Assembly: GCF_042656905.1 (NCBI RefSeq)
Contig: NZ_JBHSMZ010000004.1
Location: 570,221-594,220, forward strand
From: Massilia aerilata
GTDB taxonomy: Bacteria; Pseudomonadota; Gammaproteobacteria; Burkholderiales; Burkholderiaceae_D
Length of the DNA: 24,000 bases
Direction of reading: 5' to 3'
The position numbers and the translations under genes are program-made. Of the stretch, positions 4,980 to 15,714 are shown piece after piece (the stretch's first letter is position 1; each line of letters opens with the position of its first letter). The notes under the pieces were generated by a model. That model ran no database searches, was not told where the DNA came from, and saw only the letters and a list, made by a program, of their open reading frames with translations.

Positions 4980-6281
4980 ATGAATACCTCTGAAACCAAA
5001 GCCACCTTGTCGTTCTCCGACGGCAGCCCGTCGGTCGACATGCCGATCTACAAGGGCACCATCGGCCCGGACGTCATCGATATCCGCAAGCTGTACGGCC
5101 AGACCGGCAAGTTCACCTACGACCCGGGCTTCATGTCGACCGCTGCGTGCCAGTCCGCCATCACCTACATCGACGGTGACAAGGGCGAGCTGCTGTACCG
5201 CGGCTACCCGATCGAACAGCTGGCCGAGAACTGCGACTTCCTGGAATCCTGCTACCTGCTGCTGAACGGCGAACTGCCGAACGCCGAGCAGAAGGAGAAG
5301 TTCACCGACACCGTGACCAAGCACACGATGATCCACGAGCAGATGAACTTCTTCTTCCGTGGTTTCCGTCGCGACGCGCATCCGATGTCGGTGCTGGTGG
5401 GTACCGTCGGCGCGCTGGCCTCGTTCTACCACGACTCGCTGGACATCAACGATCCGGAGCAGCGCGAGATCTCGGCAATCCGCCTGATCGCCAAGCTGCC
5501 GACCCTGGTCGCGATGGCCTACAAGTACTCGATCGGCCAGCCGTTCATGTACCCGCGCAACGACCTGTCGTACAGCGCCAACTTCATGCACATGATGTTC
5601 GCCAACCCGTGCGAAGAGTACAAGGTCAACGACGTGCTGGTGCGCGCCCTGGACCGCATCCTGATCCTGCACGCGGACCACGAGCAGAACGCATCGACCT
5701 CGACCGTCCGCCTGGCCGGTTCGTCGGGCGCCAACCCGTTCGCCTGTATCGCAGCCGGCATCGCCTGCCTGTGGGGCCCGGCGCACGGCGGCGCCAACGA
5801 AGCCGCCCTGAACATGCTGAAGGAAATCGGCAGCGTCGAGAACATCCCGGCCTTCATCGAGAAGGTCAAGGACAAGAACTCGGGCGTCAAGCTGATGGGC
5901 TTCGGTCACCGCGTGTACAAGAACTTCGACCCGCGCGCCAAGCTGATGCGCGAAACCTGCCATGAAGTGCTGAACGAACTGGGCCTGCACGACGACCCGC
6001 TGTTCAAGCTGGCCATGGAACTGGAAAAGATCGCCCTGAACGACGAATACTTCGTGTCGCGCAAGCTGTACCCGAACGTCGACTTCTACTCGGGCATCGT
6101 GCAGTCGGCCCTGGGCATCCCGGTCTCGCTGTTCACCGGTATCTTCGCGATGGCCCGCACCATCGGCTGGATCGCCCAGTGGAACGAGATGATCGCCGAC
6201 CCGGAACAGAAGATCGGCCGTCCGCGCCAGCTGTTCGTCGGTTCGCCGCGCCGCGACGTGCCTTCGATCGACAAGCGTTAA
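4980..6281 (+). CDS. gltA: Type II citrate synthase
   Basis: Motifs [11 protein letters not shown] and [14 protein letters not shown], about 433 aa. I prefer the ATG at 4980, which is preceded by AAGGAAG, over the TTG at 4950 given in the ORF track. Confidence 0.95.
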
Positions 6282-7620: not shown

Positions 7621-7830
7621 GAAGGCAGTGCTCCTGCCGGCGATCCCAGCCTTCGCCGCCGCCACCAAGCGGTCCCGGCCCACATGAAGATGGTGGCGCA
7701 AAGGCTGCAGCATGGCCGCCTGCCGATGTGCGAGAAGGGCAGCCACATGTCCATGTACGACGACCAACAAACCTGTTTCACCGCACTGATCAAATTCTTG
7801 CGCAACGGCGACGGAGGCCGATTCAAATGA
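7621..7830 (+). pseudogene. Possible 3' remnant of an alpha/beta-hydrolase gene (C-terminal ~50-70 codons only)
   Basis: The translation ...GDPS....AHMKMVAQRLQHGRLPMCEKGSHMSMYDDQQTCFTALIKFLRNG has the typical C-terminal layout of alpha/beta hydrolases (G.D..., then a catalytic-His segment xGHxxxxExP..F...I..FL). Its TGA overlaps the ATG of the next gene (ATGA at 7827-7830). No N-terminal hydrolase part is present upstream. Confidence 0.3.
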
Positions 7831-8333
7831 TGCACACCACCCTGAAATCCCTGTTCCTGGCCTGCTGCCTATGCCTCGCGAATCTTGCCCAAGCCGCCGG
7901 CGCCGATCCCGCCCTGGCGAAGCAGGTCAACGCCTTCGTCGATGCCTGGCACGACGATGCCGCCCACGCGCGCATGGCCTATTTCGACAAGATGGCGCCC
8001 GATGGGGTCTATATCGGCACCGACCGCAGCGAGCTTTGGCAGCGCGACGACTTCAAGGCCTGGGCCCGCAAGTACTTCGAAGGGAAAACGTCTGCCTGGT
8101 CGTTCAAGGCCACGCGCCGTAACGTGTATACTGCGGGCGATGGCAAGCTGATCTGGTTCGACGAGCTGCTCGACACGCCGAACATGGGCCACTGCATGGC
8201 CAGCGGCGTGATCCGCAAGACCGATAAGGGTTTCGAAATCCTGCACTACCAGCTGTCGATGGCGGTGCCGAACGAGATCGCAAAGCAGGTGACGGCGCTG
8301 GTGACGAAGGCCGAGGCCGCACCGGTCAAATAG
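7827..8333 (+). CDS. Secreted NTF2/SnoaL-like (DUF4440-like) family protein
   Basis: Signal peptide MMHTTLKSLFLACCLCLANLAQA, then ...VNAFVDAWHDDAAHARMAYFDKMAPDGVYIGTD..E.W, typical of the NTF2-like fold. The internal ATG at 7827 is preferred over the track start at 7728. Confidence 0.65.
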   Translation: MMHTTLKSLFLACCLCLANLAQAAGADPALAKQVNAFVDAWHDDAAHARMAYFDKMAPDGVYIGTDRSELWQRDDFKAWARKYFEGKTSAWSFKATRRNVYTAGDGKLIWFDELLDTPNMGHCMASGVIRKTDKGFEILHYQLSMAVPNEIAKQVTALVTKAEAAPVK

Positions 8334-8424
8334 AGATATTCAATATTTCTATTGCAACACCTGTCCTATATTCGCCACAGCGCATCATTCATTGCATGAC
8401 AGGCGCATGCGAACCGAATTAGAA

Positions 8425-8439
8425 TGTTGCTATGCAACA
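8425..8439. repeat. Perfect palindrome TGTTGC-TAT-GCAACA about 55 bp upstream of the GGDEF-EAL gene (an extra GCAACA half-site at 8354-8359)
   Basis: Read directly in the AT-rich 5' region. Function unknown. Confidence 0.5.
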
Positions 8440-8491
8440 ATGAATAATCCTCAGTAGAAATTCTCTGTGGGGTAAGTGAGAAGAACGCTCC

Positions 8492-10792
8492 ATGGGAACC
8501 TATTACGACATCGATCACTGGCGCTCCAGGGTCTTCGCGTCCCTGCTGTCGTACGTGGTCATGCTGGGTACGCTCGCCGCGGTGCCGAGTATCGGCCTCT
8601 CGATCAGCGAGGGCCTGTGGCCGGTCGCCCTGATGGACAGCGTGGCGCTGGCCTGGGTGGCCGTGCTGTGGCGCATGCCGCGCCTGAACTACACCTTCCG
8701 CGTCCTCAACTTCCTCGCGATCCTCTACCTGATCGGCATCGGCCTGATGCTCACGGTCGGTCCGGTCAGCCAGATCTTCCTGATGGCGCTGCCCGTGCTG
8801 GGCGTGGTCCTGCTGGGCATGCGGTCGGCGCTGGCCGCGCTGGGCCTGAGCGGCGCCACCATCTTCGTGCTCGGCCTGACCGGCTATGCCAGGCTGTACG
8901 TCACCGGCATGGAAGAGCATGCGCTGCTGCCCTGCCTGATCGTCACCCTGAACTACCTGTTCGTCGGCGCGCTGATTACCCTGACCTGCGGCAGCCTGCT
9001 GCAGCGCCTCGATAATTCGATGGCGGAGCTGGGCCGCACCGCCGACTCGCTCGAGGAAGGCCACGCCAGGCTGCACGAGCTGAACGCCGAGCTGCGCCTG
9101 ACCTCGGCCGCGGTCGCGCGCCTGAACGACATGGTCCTGATCGCCAGGGTGGTCGACGACGCCGGCGCCGAGCAGCCGATCATCTTCGCCAACGACGCCT
9201 TCGTGCGCCGCACCGGCTACACGCGCGACGAAGTGGTGGGCAGCAGCATGCGCCTGCTGCACGGCCCCGAGACCGACCAGATCGAGGTCGCCCGCATCTT
9301 CGGCGCCATGGCGCGCGGCGAAGCCGCCAAGGCCGAGCTGGTGAACTACACCCGGCGCGGCGAAAAATACTGGGTCGAGATGGAGCTGGTGCCCTTCGCC
9401 GACGAAGGCGGCCGCAACACGCACTGGGTGGTGGTCGGGCGCGACATCACCGAGCGCCGCAACGCCGCCGACGCCATCCACCGCCTCGCGTTCTACGACG
9501 TCCTCACCGGACTGCCGAACCGGCGCCTGCTGATCGAACGCCTGGACGCCATGGTCGCGCGCGCGCACGCGGCGGCCGGACTGGGCGCGGTGCTGTTCAT
9601 CGATCTCGACAACTTCAAGACCATCAACGATGCGCGCGGCCACGCCATCGGCGACAACATGCTCAAGCACGCGGCGCAGCGCGTGGCGGCCGCGCTGCGC
9701 CAGGGCGACACGGTGGCGCGCCTGGGCGGCGACGAATTCGTGGTGGTGCTCGAGAACCTGGGCCCGGACGCGCAGCGCGCGACCTGCGCGGCGCAGGTGG
9801 TGGCGGAGAAGATCCGCGGCGCGCTGGCCGAGCAGGTCGAGATCGGCGGCCAGCTGTATCACGCCTCGGCCAGCATCGGCATCGCGCTGCCGCTGCGCAG
9901 TGGCCAGACCGGCCACGATCTGCTGCGCGAGGCCGATACCGCGATGTACCACGCCAAGGTGGCGGGCCGCAACGGCGTGACCCTGTTCGAAGCCGGCATG
10001 CTGGCCGAGGCGGAGCGCAAGCTGACGCTGGAACGCGACTTCGCCGCCGCGATGGAAAACGGCGAACTGTCGATGTACCTGCAACTGCAGATCGATCACC
10101 TGCGCATGCCGGTGGGCGCCGAGCTGCTGATGCGCTGGCAGCGCCCGGACGGCAGCTTCGTGCCGCCGGACGTCTTCATCCCGGCCGCCGAATCGAGCGG
10201 CCTGATTTATCCGCTCGGCCAGTGGGTGCTGCGCCAGGCCTGCGAATACTGGCTGCGCCTGGACCGCGCCGGCCTGGCGGTGCCGCTGTCGATCAACGTC
10301 AGCCCGCTGCAGTTCCGCCAGCCGGAGTTCGTCGAGCAGGTCTGCGCGGTCCTGGTCGAAACCGGCGCCCCGGCCAGCCAGCTGATCTTCGAAGTGACCG
10401 AGGGCCTGCTGGTGAGCGACCTGAACGAGACCATCGCGCGCATGCACGAACTGGCGCAGATGGGCATCCGCTTCTCGATCGACGATTTCGGCACCGGCTA
10501 TTCGAACCTGGCCTACCTGAAGAAGATGCCGCTGTACGAACTGAAGATCGACAAGAGCTTCATCCGCGACACCCCCGGCGACGTCAACGGCACCGCGATC
10601 GTGCAGTCGATCCTGGCGATGGCCGACCACCTGGGCCTGCGCGTGGTGGCGGAAGGCGTCGAGACCGACCAGCAGGCCAGCTTCCTGGCCGCCAACCGCA
10701 AGCCGGCCATGCAGGGCTTCCTGTTCTCGCGCCCGGCGCCGCTGGAAGAGTTCATGACGCAGATGCGCTCCTGGCGCGCCAGGGCGGCGTAG
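8492..10792 (+). CDS. Membrane-anchored PAS-GGDEF-EAL protein (putative bifunctional diguanylate cyclase/c-di-GMP phosphodiesterase)
   Basis: About 5-6 N-terminal TM helices and a PAS domain at about residues 205-322. The GGDEF domain has an intact RLGGDEFVV. The EAL domain has ELLMRW, SINVS, EVTE, DDFGTGYS, KIDKSF, EGVET and QGF elements. Confidence 0.9.
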   Translation: MGTYYDIDHWRSRVFASLLSYVVMLGTLAAVPSIGLSISEGLWPVALMDSVALAWVAVLWRMPRLNYTFRVLNFLAILYLIGIGLMLTVGPVSQIFLMALPVLGVVLLGMRSALAALGLSGATIFVLGLTGYARLYVTGMEEHALLPCLIVTLNYLFVGALITLTCGSLLQRLDNSMAELGRTADSLEEGHARLHELNAELRLTSAAVARLNDMVLIARVVDDAGAEQPIIFANDAFVRRTGYTRDEVVGSSMRLLHGPETDQIEVARIFGAMARGEAAKAELVNYTRRGEKYWVEMELVPFADEGGRNTHWVVVGRDITERRNAADAIHRLAFYDVLTGLPNRRLLIERLDAMVARAHAAAGLGAVLFIDLDNFKTINDARGHAIGDNMLKHAAQRVAAALRQGDTVARLGGDEFVVVLENLGPDAQRATCAAQVVAEKIRGALAEQVEIGGQLYHASASIGIALPLRSGQTGHDLLREADTAMYHAKVAGRNGVTLFEAGMLAEAERKLTLERDFAAAMENGELSMYLQLQIDHLRMPVGAELLMRWQRPDGSFVPPDVFIPAAESSGLIYPLGQWVLRQACEYWLRLDRAGLAVPLSINVSPLQFRQPEFVEQVCAVLVETGAPASQLIFEVTEGLLVSDLNETIARMHELAQMGIRFSIDDFGTGYSNLAYLKKMPLYELKIDKSFIRDTPGDVNGTAIVQSILAMADHLGLRVVAEGVETDQQASFLAANRKPAMQGFLFSRPAPLEEFMTQMRSWRARAA

Positions 10793-10796
10793 CCGT

Positions 10797-11696
10797 TCAG
10801 GTCCTGACGGCGGCCAGGGCCTGGCGGCCGGCGTCCAGCGTCGGCAGCAGGCGCACGCCGGCCACGCCCTCGAGGCGCGCCACGCCGGCGCCGCCGGCCC
10901 ACAGCTCGACCTCCGGCGGCAAGGCCTGGCGCAGCTGGGCCAGCACGGGCCCCACCTGGCGCCGCGAATAAGCTGCCGAGAAGGACAGGGCCACGATGCC
11001 GGCGCCGTACGCGCTTGCCGCGCGCGCGATGTCGAGCAGCGGCGTTTCGAGGCCGAGCGAGATGCAGTTGGCGCCTTCGAGCGAGAACAGGGCCTCGGCC
11101 ATCAGGAGGCCGAGGCCGTGCCCTTCGCCGGGGACGGTGGTCATCAGGATGCGCGGGCCCTGGCGCGCGGCGGGCAGGTCGGCGATCGCCTGGCGCAGCT
11201 GCTGCTGGGCCGACTCGGTATAGAAATGTTCGTCGAAGACGTCGAAGCTGCCGTCTTCCCAGCACGCGCCGACGGCCGTGGTCAGCGGCGCCATGGTGTG
11301 CTCGACGAAGCGCTCCAGGCCCTGGCGCGCCAGCGACTGGCGCAGCGCGTGGCGGAACACGGCCGGGTCGCGCGCGCGGATCGTTTCCAGCAGGCGGGCG
11401 ATGGCGCCGTTCTGGCCCTCGTCGTCCGCGGCGCGCTGCGGCGCCGCCAGCGCGGCCAGTTCGCCATGCTCCAGCGCGGCCAGCGCGCCGGGCCGGTGGC
11501 CCTGGTCCATCAAGCGCTTCATCAGGCGCAGGCGTTCGACCTGCTCGCCCGGGTAGCAGCGTTCGCCGTTCGCGTCGCGCACCGGCTGCGGGAAGCCGTA
11601 GCGGCGTTCCCAGACCCGCAGCACGTCCTTGGACAGGCGCGTCTCGCGCTCGACGGCGGCGATGCTGAAAGTGGGCGATGTGATGGTGGCGTTCAT
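10797..11696 (-). CDS. CarH/LitR-type MerR-family transcriptional regulator with a cobalamin-binding photoreceptor domain
   Basis: N-terminal MerR HTH FSIAAVERETRLSKDVLRVWERRYGFPQPVRDANGERCYPGEQV. W146-x9-E156-H157 (ACWEDGSFDVFDEH) matches the CarH Wx9EH signature. E191-G-H193-G-L-G196 matches the B12 lower-ligand motif E/DxHxxG, followed by ...LGLETP...SFS...GGAG. It is collinear with Thermus CarH as I remember it. Its ATG overlaps the upstream stop (ATGA at 11693-11696). Confidence 0.85.
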   Translation of the reverse strand: MNATITSPTFSIAAVERETRLSKDVLRVWERRYGFPQPVRDANGERCYPGEQVERLRLMKRLMDQGHRPGALAALEHGELAALAAPQRAADDEGQNGAIARLLETIRARDPAVFRHALRQSLARQGLERFVEHTMAPLTTAVGACWEDGSFDVFDEHFYTESAQQQLRQAIADLPAARQGPRILMTTVPGEGHGLGLLMAEALFSLEGANCISLGLETPLLDIARAASAYGAGIVALSFSAAYSRRQVGPVLAQLRQALPPEVELWAGGAGVARLEGVAGVRLLPTLDAGRQALAAVRT

Positions 11697-12961
11697 GGAA
11701 CAGCCATTCTAGCGCGGCAGAGCAGGGCCGCGCCATCGTAGCGGATCACGGCCAGCAGGCGCCGCAGGTCCTGGTCGAGGCGCCGCTCGGCGCCGGCCAA
11801 GGGCACCAGTTCGGCGATGCGCGCCATGCAGTCGAGCAGGCCGGCCCCGAGCCGGCGCGGCAGGCCGTCCGGGTGGCGCAGGGCGCAGGCCTGGCGCACC
11901 GCCACCAGCAGCGCCGCCGCCACCTGTTCCGTCAGTTCGACCGCGCGCAGGCAATCGCGCGCCGCGATCATGCCGGTGCCGGCCTTGTGGACCACCGCGT
12001 CCGGCGTCAGCCTGAGCGCCTCCGCGGTCCAGGCAGAAACGCTGGCCTGCAGCGCCTTCAGGCCGTGGCCGCCGGCCGCGCTGCGCAGGCCGGGCGGCAG
12101 GCCCTTGCCGGCGCAAGCGTCGGCCACCAGCGCCATCTGCTGTTCGAACAGGTCGGCGAGCTTGGTCACCGCATTCTTCATGCCTTCCATCGCGAACCTC
12201 AGGTGGCCGGCGTGGTCCTGGAAAAGCGGATCGCCGCCGGCGCTGTTCAGTTCCAGTTCGATGTGGCCGATCATCCAGGGCAGGGCGTCCGCCAGGACCC
12301 CGATCACCTGCGGCGCGCAGCGCAGCGGCGCCAGGTCGTGCGGCCGCACGGCGCCCGTCGCCTGGCCGAGGTCGTCGCGGATCCAGCCGGCCGCGCGCAG
12401 CGTGCCGGGGTAGGGCCGGGCCGCGAACAGGGCCTGGTCGAAGTGGGCGGCGTTGGCGTCCAGGGCGACGGCGGCCAGCGCCGCGATGCGGCCGGCCAGC
12501 CTGCACAGGCTTCGCGCGCGCACCGCCGCCAGGCAGGCCAGGCCGGTCATGGCGGCGTCGCGGTCGATCAGTGCCTGGTCCTCGGCGGCCAGCGCCGGCG
12601 GCGCGTCGTCCTCGAGCAGGGCGGCCAGCCGCCGCAGCGCGTCCATGCCGGCGCCGGACCCGCCCTGGCACAGCGAAGCCAGGCGCACCGCGAGGATCGC
12701 GCGGGTCTGCTCCGGCGTGAAAGGCGTGTCCAGGCCGGCGCCGTGCCAGCTGAAGAGCCGCTGCGGCGCATCGCCATCGCCGGCCAGGCGCTTGAGCCGC
12801 GCGGCGCCGGCCTCGATGCGGTCGGCAAAGGCCGGGTCGCCGGACAGTACCGGCCGGGCGCGGCCCGCGGCCAGGGCCTCGATTTCGTCCACGGTGACCG
12901 GGCCGGCGCCAAACACCACGGCGGGCAGGCCGCCGGCCGGGAGGTCGATCTGCATGATCAT
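11693..12961 (-). CDS. Histidine/tyrosine ammonia-lyase-fold protein (TAL position in the pyp cluster), apparently lacking the MIO Ala-Ser-Gly loop
   Basis: 422 aa. These segments align to P. putida HutH (from memory): [51 protein letters not shown] with [71 protein letters not shown] with [20 protein letters not shown]; and NSAGGDPLF with NAVSDNPLVF. No GS(V)GASGDLAPL segment and no YGxNTGFG segment is present. The start was chosen at the ATGA overlap with the pcl stop (12958-12961). The track start at 13417 lies inside pcl. Confidence 0.75.
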   Translation of the reverse strand: [422 protein letters not shown]

Positions 12962-14175
12962 GGGGCGATGCTCCAGTCGGCGGGCTTGCCCAGCATGCCG
13001 CGCGGGATGCGTTCGCCCAGCGTGATCGCCTTCGGGCGCTCCGGCGCGGCCAGTCTGGCGTCGGTCCAGGCGCGCAGTTCCTGGATAAAGCCTTCGCCGG
13101 CGCCGGCGCGCGGCACGATGAAGGCTTTCAGGCGCTGGCCTTCGTCGGGGCGCATCAGGCGCACGGCGGCGTCCTCGACCAGCGGGTGCTCGAGCAGGAC
13201 CTGGCGCACGCGCTCCGGGAAGACGTTGACGCCGCCCACCTGCACCGCGCTGTCGCGGCGCGGACCGAGCGTAAACCGGTCGTCGCCGCACCAGGCCAGG
13301 CTGTCCTGCGGGTGCAGGGCCTGTGCTTCGCCATCGGGGCCGCGGCGCAGCAGCGCATCGCCGGCCCGTTCGATGTGCGGCAGCAGGCGGTAAGGATCGC
13401 GGTGCGAGGCGCGCCAACCCAGGCCGCCGGTCTCGGAAGCGCCATACACCTGGACCAGCGCCAGGCCCGCGGCTTCGGCGCGTTCGGCCACCGCATCGGG
13501 GCAGGGCGCAGTCGAACTGACGCCGGTCACGTCATTGGGGAAGTCCTGGTCCGCGCCCAGCGCCGCCTGCCAGAACTGCGGATGGCCGATCGCCAGGTCG
13601 CCGGGCAGCAGGTGGCGGGCCAGCTGCGACGGCAGGCGCGCGCGCACGCTCAGCACCTGGTCCGCTTCGAGTCCGAGATGGCGCGGCAGCAGCACGCCGA
13701 ACAGGAAACCGTAGATGTGATGCGCCGGCACCGCCAGCAGCAGGCGCCGGCGCCCGCTGAACAGCGTGGCCAGGCTGGCCGCTTCCTGCTCCAGCGTGGC
13801 GAGGGCGTGCGCGCAGCGTTTCGGTTCGCCGGTGCTGCCGGAAGTGCGGAAAGTCAGTTCGGCATCGCGGTGCTGCAGGCCCGCGGTGGCGATGTCGAGC
13901 CAGTCGCCGAGGGTGCGGCGCGCCAGCAGGTAGTCTTCGACGCCGCTGTGCTGCAGCTGCAGGGCCTCGGCCAGCGCGCCCGCCAGCTGCAGCAGCTCGA
14001 GCGAATCGACGCCCAGGTCCTGTTGCAGCGACAGCGAGGGCTTCCAGCCGTCCGGCAGCAGCAGCGGGTCGTGGCGCAGCGCCGCCAGCTCGCCCGCCAC
14101 CAGATCGGCGACGAAGCGCAGCAGGGCGCTGCGGTCGGCCCACCACGGGGCAAGAAGTGCGCTCGGTGCTTGCAT
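12958..14175 (-). CDS. Adenylate-forming enzyme, p-coumarate ligase-like (pCL position), with an N-terminal carrier-protein-like domain
   Basis: 405 aa. AMP-binding core motifs: FRTSGSTGEPK (A3), YGASETGG (A5), RRDSAVQVGGVNVFPERVRQVLLEHPLVEDAAV (A8) and a terminal GKPADW Lys. Residues ~20-90 contain LQQDLGVDSLELLQLAGALAEAL, which resembles a phosphopantetheine-attachment site. The ATG is 4 nt after the pyp stop. Confidence 0.8.
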   Translation of the reverse strand: MQAPSALLAPWWADRSALLRFVADLVAGELAALRHDPLLLPDGWKPSLSLQQDLGVDSLELLQLAGALAEALQLQHSGVEDYLLARRTLGDWLDIATAGLQHRDAELTFRTSGSTGEPKRCAHALATLEQEAASLATLFSGRRRLLLAVPAHHIYGFLFGVLLPRHLGLEADQVLSVRARLPSQLARHLLPGDLAIGHPQFWQAALGADQDFPNDVTGVSSTAPCPDAVAERAEAAGLALVQVYGASETGGLGWRASHRDPYRLLPHIERAGDALLRRGPDGEAQALHPQDSLAWCGDDRFTLGPRRDSAVQVGGVNVFPERVRQVLLEHPLVEDAAVRLMRPDEGQRLKAFIVPRAGAGEGFIQELRAWTDARLAAPERPKAITLGERIPRGMLGKPADWSIAP

Positions 14176-14179
14176 GGGC

Positions 14180-14569
14180 TTACAGGCGCTTCACGAAAAT
14201 CCAGTAGGTGCCGTCGCTGATGGCCTTCTTCATGTGGATTTTTACTTTTGTCGGGGTCATTTTGTAGTCGAACACGTACTCGAACATCGTGTTCAGGTTA
14301 CTCGCGCGCACGCCGGCGTCGAACACGCCCTTGAAGCGCGCGGTGTTGGTGCAGGGCGCGACGTCGCGGAAGAAGTTGGTGCCGATCACGGCGCCGGCGT
14401 GGCGGCCGGTGATGTCGGCTTCGGCCTGATTGTAGCGCAGGACCTTGCCCTGGCCATCGAGCTGGATGGCGCCGAAAGCCAGTTCGTCGATCTGCTTGCC
14501 CGACAGCTGTGACAGCTTGTTGTCGATGTCGTCCTTGCCGAAGGCGATTACGTTGAGGGTAGACAGCAT
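14180..14569 (-). CDS. pyp: Photoactive yellow protein (blue-light PAS photoreceptor, p-coumaroyl-Cys chromophore)
   Basis: 129 aa. It aligns end to end with Halorhodospira halophila PYP as I recall it, at roughly 60% identity by hand count. Examples are [51 protein letters not shown] and YW.FVKR. Pocket residues are conserved: Y46/E50/T54/R56/C73 correspond to Hh Y42/E46/T50/R52/C69. A strong SD (AAGGAG) lies 6 nt upstream. Confidence 0.95.
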
Positions 14570-14607
14570 GGTGCTCCTTTTATCTTTGTATGCAATTGAA
14601 CCATAGT

Positions 14608-14673
14608 TTTGTCTAGGACAAAGCGCGATTGTATATTACTTTTTGGAAACAATGCTTATTTGTCCTGGACAAA
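14608..14673. promoter_or_regulatory. Dyad-symmetric operator-like array: TTTGTCTAGGACAAA (14608-14622), ATTGT (14628-14632), ACAAT (14649-14653), TTTGTCCTGGACAAA (14659-14673)
   Basis: Read directly in the pyp/gluQ divergent intergenic region. The two 15-bp palindromes are 51 bp apart centre to centre, and the inner half-sites mirror each other about 14640/14641. Possible promoters overlap palindrome A. On the plus strand this is TTGTCT-17-TATATT (14609-14637). On the minus strand it is TAGACA-19-TACAAA (14615 down to 14585). Promoter calls are weak. Confidence 0.45.
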
Positions 14674-14703
14674 GTTTCGACTGTCGCCCTTGGGAGACGC
14701 GGT

Positions 14704-15714
14704 ATGCTAAGGTGGCGCCTTCCCCCATCAACCGAGTTTCCGCAGCGCGCAGTGAGCAGCTTTTCCGCCCCCATACCGACCCCGGCCGCCTCCTATGTCG
14801 GCCGCTTCGCCCCATCCCCGACCGGCCCGCTGCACGCCGGCTCGCTGGTGGCGGCCCTGGCCAGCTACCTGGACGCGCGCGCCAACGGCGGCGCCTGGCT
14901 GATCCGCATCGAAGACATCGACGAGGGCCGCGCCGTGCCGGGCGCCGCCGGCACCATCCTCGAGCAGCTGGACTGGCTGGGCATGCATTCGGACGGCGAG
15001 ATCGTCTGGCAGAGCCGGCGCAAGGACCTTTACCAGGCCGCGCGCGAGCGCATCGCCGACTGGGTCTACGGATGCGGCTGCAACCGCCGGGAGATCGCCG
15101 ATTCGCGCCTGGGCGTGGGGCCGGACGGCGCGGCCATCTATCCGGGCACCTGCCGCCATGGCCTGGCGCCGGGACGCGAGGCGCGCAGCCTGCGCCTGCG
15201 GGTGCCGGAATCGGGCGACGACGCGGTCGGCTTCACCGACCGTTTCGCGGGTTGGCAGGAACAGCGGCTGGCGCTGGAATCGGGCGATTTCGTGCTCAAG
15301 CGGGCGGACGGCTACTGGGCCTACCAGCTGGCGGTGGTCGTCGACGATGCGGAGCAGGGCGTCACCGACGTCGTGCGCGGCGCCGACCTGCTCGATTCGA
15401 CCCCGCGCCAGATCTACCTGCAGCGCCTGCTCGGCGTGCCGACGCCGCGCTACCTGCACGTGCCGGTGGTGCGCAACGCCAACGGCGAAAAGCTGTCCAA
15501 GCAGACCGGGGCGCTGGCCATCTCGCCCGGTCCGCAAGGACGCGATGAAGAGGCCGCCGTCGCGGCCCTGCAACAGGCGGCTGGTTTCCTGGGACTGCGG
15601 CTGGCCTCGCCGGCCCCGTCCATCCGCTCGCTGGCCGCGTTCTGGCAGGAGGCGGTCCCGGCCTGGGCCAGCCTGCTCGCCGAACGCGGCGCCCAGCTAA
15701 GGCTCCCGGACTAG
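14704..15714 (+). CDS. gluQ: Glutamyl-Q tRNA(Asp) synthetase (truncated GluRS paralogue)
   Basis: [16 protein letters not shown] (HIGH-like), [24 protein letters not shown] and KLSKQ (KMSKS-like) motifs, with no anticodon-binding domain. The start is uncertain: ATG at 14704 is preferred, GTG at 14752 is possible, and the track start at 14629 falls in AT-rich intergenic DNA. Confidence 0.85.

Follow-up and report, generated by a model that had tools for sequence, protein, structure and literature searches.

Photoactive yellow protein (PYP) is among the biophysically best-studied photoreceptors, and a locus of the soil bacterium Massilia aerilata raises the question of what controls the synthesis of such a sensor and of what it acts on. 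Both the regulation and the signalling targets of single-domain PYPs are still open according to a survey of 113 pyp operons (PMC12826048). This article describes a stretch of 24,000 nucleotides (nt) from M. aerilata (the window; NCBI RefSeq assembly GCF_042656905.1, contig NZ_JBHSMZ010000004.1, positions 570,221 to 594,220 of the forward strand; positions below count from its first letter), in which a gene for a PYP and a gene for a CarH-type B12 photoreceptor-repressor occupy the two ends of a group of four minus-strand genes. The group is read here as a light-inducible, negatively autoregulated operon, P/O-pyp-pcl-(tal relic)-carH, in which CarH loaded with adenosylcobalamin (AdoCbl) would repress in the dark and light would lift the repression; to this reading we assign a probability of about 0.65. 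Judging from sequence, it is most likely that in a Massilia clade one photoreceptor switches on the synthesis of another.

The four genes are closely packed. The first, pyp (14180-14569, minus strand, 129 amino acids, aa), is separated by a 4-nt gap (TAA-GCCC-ATG) from pcl (12958-14175, minus, 405 aa), which shares an ATGA stop/start overlap at 12958-12961 with a tal-like gene (11693-12961, minus, 422 aa counted from the ATG at 12961); a second ATGA overlap at 11693-11696 joins the latter to the carH-like gene (10797-11696, minus, 299 aa), the last of the group. The gene limits were taken from the list of open reading frames (ORFs), and direct reading of the window bore out the packing, the gap and both overlaps as described in the initial annotation. 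The gene order is beyond chance, since it recurs in 10 species-level Massilia genomes and in five further examples on contigs from metagenomes or metagenome-assembled genomes (MAGs), and in every Massilia locus the successive genes of the pyp-pcl-(tal)-carH series overlap or are no more than about 50 nt apart.

The product of the first gene is, by profile and alignment, a bona fide PYP, for which a p-coumaroyl thioester and a blue-light photocycle are predicted. It reaches 179.6 bits on NCBIfam TIGR02373 (cut-off 143), matches the Protein Data Bank (PDB) chains of Halorhodospira halophila PYP with an E-value of 3e-52 in phmmer and is 62% identical to that protein. Equivalents of the pocket residues Y42, E46, T50, R52 and C69 are present in the alignment; in the numbering of the window protein C73, E50, T54 and R56 are invariant and Y46 is conserved, so the chromophore Cys and the Tyr/Glu/Thr/Arg pocket are in place and the initial description of an unmistakable PYP holds. 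The ratio of nonsynonymous to synonymous substitution rates (dN/dS) of pyp is 0.06 relative to the related locus L001. The second product scores 337.0 bits on the equivalog TIGR02372 (PYP-activation 4-coumarate-CoA ligase; cut-off 334.7) and matches Pfam AMP-binding and AMP-binding_C. In a survey of one genome per species (GTDB) by PYP profile, in which the 80 best loci were retained together with 10-kb flanks, pcl was found downstream of pyp in 79 loci.

On all defining sequence criteria of the family, the product of the fourth gene is a CarH-type protein, and binding of AdoCbl is predicted. The 299-aa sequence is 100% identical to a Massilia aerilata protein entry. In Pfam it lies above the gathering scores of MerR_1 (47.3 bits against 21.6; residues 10-71), B12-binding_2 (26.3 against 23) and B12-binding (34.3 against 32.1). 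It aligns over its full length with Thermus thermophilus CarH (5c8d/3whp; E of about 1e-33), and its N-terminus aligns with the DNA-binding domains of CarH and CarA (5c8d, 2jml). The motifs Wx9EH and ExHx2Gx41SxV/Tx22-27GG define the CarH family (PMC8156234). The first occurs here as W146-x9-E156-H157, column for column with the T. thermophilus motif, and the second, the B12 lower-ligand motif, as E191-G-H193-G-L-G196, x41, S-F-S, x27, GG. The residues named in the initial annotation (W146, E156 and H157; E191, H193 and G196) were thus located exactly, and its assignment of the protein to the CarH type stands on the MerR helix-turn-helix (HTH), both B12 subdomains, Wx9EH and ExHx2Gx41SxSx27GG. 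Aligned with 11 further pyp-linked orthologs and an Accumulibacter homolog, the window protein shares both motifs with all of them; more broadly, they are invariant in all 17 pyp-linked sequences (the window and 16 others) and present in 34 of 35 other homologs checked that are associated with the operator discussed below. Membership in class II of the LitR proteins (Pseudomonas PplR/PmlR), which have only the B12-binding_2 four-helix bundle, lack a functional Rossmann B12 domain and are B12-independent (PMC9758184), was rejected, given that the protein has both B12 subdomains and the His ligand, all of them conserved.

A protein with these domains might still be indifferent to light, either because it represses without B12, as Myxococcus xanthus CarA does, or because it senses cobalamin supply, in which case its tie to PYP would be a matter of nutritional or some other control. 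CarA indeed has a B12 motif yet represses without B12 (PMC8156234), and the Pfam and NCBIfam scores of the B12 module are modest in the window protein. CarA, however, lacks Wx9EH, whereas Wx9EH and the lower-ligand motif are invariant in the pyp-linked homologs of the window protein and in nearly all of the operator-linked ones. The gene partners of its homologs (GSHPx, amine oxidase, DUF1365 and CMAS/UfaM-like) are moreover of the kinds that are light-induced under LitR-type control in Pseudomonas (PMC9758184), and a light-independent regulator is judged very unlikely.

The link between this regulator and pyp was sought at the pyp promoter. A repeat and motif search of the window found two copies of TTTGTCCnGGACAAA, a 15-nt palindrome, bracketing it. 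In the minus-strand reading the proximal putative operator is TTTGTCCTAGACAAA (14608-14622), which starts 5 nt past the -10 hexamer and covers the predicted +1, and the distal one is TTTGTCCAGGACAAA (14659-14673), 51 bp upstream of the proximal copy. No other copy with at most one mismatch occurs in the 24 kb, and the chance expectation is 0.43 even at two mismatches or fewer. The putative -10 is TACAAT (14628-14633, minus), its -35 being poorly defined; the assignment rests on a TAnnnT hexamer conserved across the aligned Massilia loci (TACAAT, TATAAT, TATAGT, TATATT, TAAAAT). A consensus promoter scan was set aside as evidence for the promoter, as it missed it; its only calls were one intragenic site and one on the plus strand that overlaps the proximal palindrome. 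In each of the 14 Massilia-type loci examined the proximal operator holds its place with respect to the -10, at 5-6 nt in most and at up to 10 in L005, and the two palindromes of Massilia pyp loci are spaced by 51, 62-64, 72-73, 107 or 110 bp. Every Massilia pyp-pcl-carH promoter examined has the palindrome pair, in the order distal palindrome, a TTTCC...AAG element, TAnnnT and proximal palindrome. Overlap of the operator with a sigma-A/sigma-70 promoter is a trait of CarH systems, and the predicted sites are so placed.

The same palindrome recurs where pyp or a CarH homolog is encoded. With at most one mismatch it lies within 300 bp upstream of pyp in 20 of the 80 pyp loci, and only 6 copies occur in the remaining 1.44 Mb. 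In Accumulibacter/Rhodocyclales a CarH homolog with 61% identity to the window protein is encoded divergently from a GSHPx/amine-oxidase/DUF1365/CMAS cluster (here the light cluster), and both palindromes recur in the intergenic region, where the homolog's own promoter region lies. A metagenome scan was also run on DNA only, with the pattern TTGTYYWRGACAA-N35-65-TTGTYYWRGACAA and no protein information, and 80 loci were fetched from it. In 51 of these the 5' end of a carH-like gene (42-84% identity) lies within 200 nt of the palindrome pair; 40 hold light-cluster genes, several a divergent fasciclin gene and two pyp-pcl-carH. Where carH, cluster or pyp genes are present (59 loci), the spacing of the pair is 51 bp in one, 61-65 bp in 29 (mode 63) and 73-74 bp in 29 (mode 74), and in the 21 unassociated matches it is scattered over 48-78 bp. 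The spacing changes by about 10.5-11 bp at a time, which indicates that one side of the helix has to present both sites; this fits cooperative binding and is expected if one oligomer occupies both palindromes. The pair is therefore a likely operator of the CarH subfamily, and the autoregulation of the operon, given as probable in the initial annotation, is likely on the strength of the pair at the pyp promoter and of the carH-like genes in 51 of the 80 loci retrieved by pattern. The subfamily itself is large and betaproteobacterial (L093-L172, L081, L087, L088), with a two-palindrome operator at 63 or 74 bp, and stands divergent from a GSHPx/amine-oxidase/DUF1365/CMAS/Chalcone_3 cluster or from a small secreted fasciclin gene.

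The assignment of the operator rests on co-occurrence, and the palindromes might instead be bound by another factor, with carH in the operon for unrelated reasons and no autoregulation. Ten pyp loci have the palindrome and no nearby carH, and a second conserved element, TGTTTCC...AAAG (14639-14651, minus), flanked by the distal operator and the -10, leaves room for further factors at this promoter. All the same, we regard such a coincidence as highly improbable: a carH-like gene starts at most 200 nt from the pair in those 51 of 80 loci found from DNA alone, the association spans three contexts (light cluster, fasciclin gene and pyp), and stand-alone carH genes that lack the palindromes have lost a key motif residue. 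The TGTTTCC...AAAG element may be the site of another regulator; ATTTCC or ATTGCC with AAG.AA stands at the same position in all Massilia pyp promoters. A related palindrome, ATGTTTTCTyAAGGAAACAT, was observed about 60-90 nt 5' of pyp in Noviherbaspirillum leaders (L057, L062, L063, L065).

The mechanism proposed for the window operon follows from that of known CarH proteins, in which AdoCbl drives assembly of a dark tetramer on an operator overlapping the promoter, and the tetramer comes apart when the Co-C bond is broken by UV, blue or green light (PMC8156234). In the dark, the CarH-type protein would bind AdoCbl and oligomerise, probably to a tetramer with four DNA-binding domains. This oligomer would sit on the two 15-bp palindromes, that is, on four half-sites, one palindrome lying over the transcription start and the other five helical turns upstream, and would block RNA polymerase. 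Light from UV to green would photolyse the Co-C bond, the oligomer would disassemble and the operon would be transcribed. PYP apoprotein and coumarate-CoA ligase would then be made, so that holo-PYP would appear only after light, with p-coumarate supplied by the environment or by another locus. New CarH, co-produced from the last gene, would close the promoter again once light ends and AdoCbl is available. The sequence comparisons themselves establish what the genes are, their motifs, the conservation of the palindromes and the association of these with the repressor family; B12 binding, the light response, the oligomeric state and the direction of regulation are what we infer by this route, as is the hierarchical two-chromophore circuit with fast PYP signalling that the initial annotation envisaged.

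Several features weigh against a light-released CarH at this promoter. The protein scores 129.6 bits on the NCBIfam CarH equivalog NF052513, far from the cut-off of 400, although this is still its best-scoring family; its Pfam B12-binding score is barely over threshold (34.3 against 32.1), its B12 motif reads SxS at the SxV/T position, and a Glu stands beside the Trp in place of the His that is the bis-His photoproduct residue of T. thermophilus CarH. As the sites are palindromic and not tandem direct repeats, the binding geometry would differ from that of the solved CarH complex; a search for the T. thermophilus-type operator (tandem 11-bp nAnnTnnACAn) gave no two-repeat match in the window even with one mismatch. 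Since the -35 is poor, an activator or other factor may also act at the pyp promoter. Finally, many of the 51 supporting loci belong to related lineages, and their spacing and association are not statistically independent.

The pairing of pyp with carH is restricted to one lineage. In the 80 surveyed pyp loci, a carH-like gene directly follows pyp-pcl(-tal) in 10, all from Massilia, a genus with 11 loci in the set; the other 70 loci, among them those of Ramlibacter, Noviherbaspirillum, Idiomarina and Marinospirillum, have no carH-like gene within 10 kb. A carH-like fourth gene, for which a survey across Burkholderiales had been suggested, is therefore a recurrent feature in Massilia and not a general one of pyp loci. 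In a neighbour-joining tree of 54 CarH-like sequences the pyp-linked proteins form one clade nested within CarH-like proteins of other contexts, which fits a single capture event in a Massilia ancestor. In L091 (carH at 5001-5945) and L092 (5001-5930), which share the dapD ... pilT-like flanks of L084 and L090, carH stands alone and pyp-pcl is missing. These two genes have no palindromes, encode Wx9EQ in place of Wx9EH and form a long branch inside the pyp-linked clade. The palindromes and the His of Wx9EH are thus gone wherever pyp-pcl is missing, and within this clade the pyp cassette and its repressor appear to be mutually dependent.

Such dependence, together with the tight coupling of pyp and carH clade-wide, is also what would be seen if light were sensed by PYP and the signal passed on to the CarH-type protein as effector. 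On activation by blue light, PYP would attach to the repressor, perhaps at its HTH, and act as its anti-repressor. The main role of B12 would then lie in oligomerisation, or B12 would supply a second signal, and the operon would pair a sensor with its effector under positive feedback. Precedents for small photoreceptors or light-induced proteins that neutralise a neighbouring MerR/CarH-type repressor are found in the short LOV protein PmSB-LOV, which binds the HTH of the class II LitR PmlR2 in the light (PMC9758184), in BluF acting on BluR, as cited in the same article (PMC9758184), and in CarS acting on CarA and CarH (PMC8156234), and the single-domain PYP has no identified partner (PMC12826048; PMC9664959). 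On the other side, pyp is absent from 49 of the 51 operator-linked carH loci, and all AdoCbl motifs are retained there; since the motifs are kept in lineages that lack PYP, the subfamily needs no PYP for light sensing. The known effectors PmlR2 and BluR have no functional B12 domain, whereas the window regulator has one. In other Oxalobacteraceae the operator also stands upstream of pyp with no linked carH, as predicted if pyp is a plain member of the regulon. The 20 pyp loci with the palindrome include such loci of Noviherbaspirillum, Herbaspirillum, Glaciimonas and Pusillimonas, where it abuts a good TTGACA -35, and the operator thus reaches pyp in other Oxalobacteraceae and in Alcaligenaceae. 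PYP as anti-repressor is accordingly considered unlikely. It is equally doubtful that the CarH-type repressor is the partner of the single-domain PYP, one factor thereby integrating irreversible AdoCbl photolysis with the reversible p-coumaroyl photocycle.

The initial annotation called the third gene tal-like, and its homology to TAL holds; its catalytic motif is lost. The Pfam Lyase_aromatic match is limited to profile positions 177-451 (the C-terminal two-thirds), alignments with PDB lyases skip about 50 residues around the Ala-Ser-Gly loop, and no [AST]SG motif was found in context in the product. On NCBIfam lyase models it falls far below the cut-offs (HAL subfamily, the best, 97.5 against 524; hutH 93.8 against 539). 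The orthologs of L005 (518 aa) and L006 (521 aa), taken as intact, carry GSVGASGDLTPL, and by alignment with them the gene of the window, L001 and L004 has four in-frame deletions, one of which, of about 54 residues and including GSVGASGDLTPL, takes out the Ala-Ser-Gly loop of the 4-methylideneimidazole-5-one (MIO) group. A working TAL was accordingly rejected, and the third gene probably is a non-catalytic, MIO-less lyase relic. Its dN/dS of 0.39-0.57 is above that of pyp, pcl and carH (0.06-0.32), yet not neutral. Decay is graded among Massilia pyp loci: L006 is intact, L005 keeps the MIO motif and lacks the segment containing NQD, the window, L001 and L004 show the four deletions, and six loci (L002, L003, L007-L010) lack the gene; the frame is kept throughout, and L148 is also cited among the loci of this series. 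One possible reason for retention of the frame is that the start of the downstream carH overlaps the tal-like stop codon. Because the TAL homologue is intact, decayed or absent across Massilia, the conserved module is pyp-pcl-carH, and with a dead TAL gene p-coumarate must come from the environment or from another locus.

The window system shares its main elements with class I CarH/LitR proteins (T. thermophilus CarH, 5C8D/5C8E; Bacillus megaterium LitR/CarH; M. xanthus CarH), namely a winged HTH, a Wx9EH four-helix bundle and a His-on B12 Rossmann domain, together with a promoter-overlapping operator and an autoregulated gene in or beside the target operon, the latter two predicted here. Unlike in the studied CarH systems, the target would be PYP and its chromophore ligase instead of carotenoid or photolyase genes (as initially noted, the 24-kb window has no crt or photolyase gene), the operator would consist of two phased 15-bp palindromes where T. 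thermophilus and B. megaterium have 11-bp direct repeats, three or four in tandem, and carH is the last gene of the operon; the Glu for His, the SxS for SxV/T and the score below the NF052513 cut-off set the protein apart as well. There is likeness also to the betaproteobacterial carH loci (Accumulibacter, Rhodocyclales, L081, L087, L093-L172), which belong to the same subfamily (42-84% identity) and have the palindrome pair, the 63/74-bp phasing and the motifs. There carH comes first and is divergent from photo-oxidative-stress genes, whereas in Massilia it comes last, behind pyp-pcl. No paper on these palindrome-linked carH loci or on their operator was found among open-access papers and preprints.

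Other systems resemble single aspects of the locus. In Pseudomonas mendocina a PAS-type blue-light sensor, PmSB-LOV, is likewise encoded near a LitR/CarH-family repressor, PmlR2, with two sites around a sigma-70 promoter (PMC9758184); its response is light-induced, whereas that of the window operon is a prediction. PmlR2 differs in having no Rossmann B12 domain, in not being a sensor itself and in the form of its sites (TGTACA-N12-TGTACA), and its sensor is a LOV protein with flavin mononucleotide (FMN), not a PYP. The pyp-pcl-tal operon of H. halophila has the same order of pyp, PYP-type ligase and TAL homolog; unlike it, the window has a MIO-less TAL relic, carH as fourth gene, a CarH-type operator and a non-phototrophic soil betaproteobacterium as host. 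Two unrelated types of photoreceptor also share one predicted operon in Caballeronia sp. SBC2, where pyp is found with a BLUF gene (Dohmen et al. 2025, PMC12826048). That BLUF protein lacks a DNA-binding domain, while the second photoreceptor of the window is a transcription factor whose predicted operator lies at the promoter of the operon.

Among open-access papers and preprints, none was found that connects PYP with CarH, LitR or B12 regulators. MerR, B12 and Massilia are absent from the text of the 2025 survey of 113 pyp operons (PMC12826048), and in the open-access literature the pairing of pyp with a B12 regulator was found only as an uncommented line for Massilia sp. WG5 in its supplementary table. 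A prior characterisation of pyp-carH operons, which according to the initial annotation would remove novelty but not function, did not come to light there beyond that line. A 2022 article on the PYP family reported that clade A PYPs often lie beside "transcriptional regulators" (PMC9664959). A different co-occurrence is seen in Methylobacterium durans, where a predicted pyp operon within the photosynthesis gene cluster starts with a 298-aa cobalamin-binding protein followed by PpsR (PMC12826048, supplement file 2), that is, a B12-binding regulator component together with a PYP-family gene. The parts and the regulatory principle are known; what is new is the proposed gating of a PYP photoreceptor by a B12 photoreceptor and the operator architecture of the subfamily.

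For the field, the locus offers a testable regulatory input to pyp, a B12 photoreceptor with a defined putative operator in a culturable non-phototrophic soil bacterium, and a candidate partner protein of PYP. The cargo of CarH-type regulation would be extended from photoprotection genes to another light sensor. Should PYP bind the CarH-type repressor, this would be the first effector for a single-domain PYP, and the operon would unite sensor and effector in one self-contained cassette. For a large betaproteobacterial subfamily of CarH proteins, two phased palindromes with spacings of 51, 63 or 74 bp would make up an operator of a kind not described before; the pair suggests a DNA-binding geometry unlike that of the solved T. 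thermophilus complex and could serve the design of optogenetic parts.

The single operon described in the initial annotation agrees with the coupled junctions and may be incomplete, because a conserved TAGAAT hints at a separate carH promoter. In the window this hexamer lies at 11706-11711 (minus), within the 3' end of the tal-like gene and 9 nt 5' of the carH ATG; like the window, L001-L004, L090, L007, L010 and L089 have GCTAGAAT or TAGAAT at a matching distance from the start of carH. In most Massilia loci the hexamer stands 9-11 nt 5' of the start, whether this falls in tal-like coding sequence or in a pcl-carH spacer, and the stand-alone carH of L092 has TACAAT 7 nt 5' of its start. It may be an internal promoter for basal repressor synthesis from a near-leaderless transcript. 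A weak hairpin at 12919-12935 inside the tal-like ORF, considered as a terminator between the genes, was discounted as within chance expectation, and an Rfam scan of the window matched no RNA family and no cobalamin riboswitch. A Shine-Dalgarno sequence, AGGAG (14574-14578, minus), was read 4 nt 5' of the pyp ATG.

Around the operon the window contains a gluQ-tRNA synthetase gene (divergent), tricarboxylic acid cycle genes, a two-component system, an esterase gene and a convergent MASE11-PAS-GGDEF-EAL gene (8492-10792, plus strand) whose stop codon is 4 nt from that of carH. The last of these was considered as a conserved part of the system and rejected, being syntenic only in the closest relatives (L001-L004, L089). 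GGDEF/EAL genes were also observed near pyp in several unrelated loci (L024, L043/L046, L060); a cyclic di-GMP output for PYP is possible, and its status as a conserved feature is unsupported at the window locus. In Massilia sp. WG5 a second pyp lies in a GGDEF/EAL operon lacking pcl (supplementary table, Dohmen et al., PMC12826048). If M. aerilata resembles WG5, one might speculate that CarH-gated pcl could gate chromophore loading of both PYPs.

Two further observations concern the reach of the palindromes. In Glaciimonas (L043, L046; about 7700-10400) a second, divergent PYP-like gene and an intact TAL gene lie upstream of pyp-pcl, and several PYP-related genes may share a regulon there, as palindromes occur in both intergenic regions. 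In the window, the plus-strand sigma-70-like site TTGTCT-17-TATATT (14609-14637), for which the proximal palindrome serves as -35, would read across the distal palindrome toward the gluQ-RS ORF (14629-15714, plus); the glutamyl-Q tRNA(Asp) synthetase gene might therefore be co-repressed in the subclade in which it is divergent from pyp.

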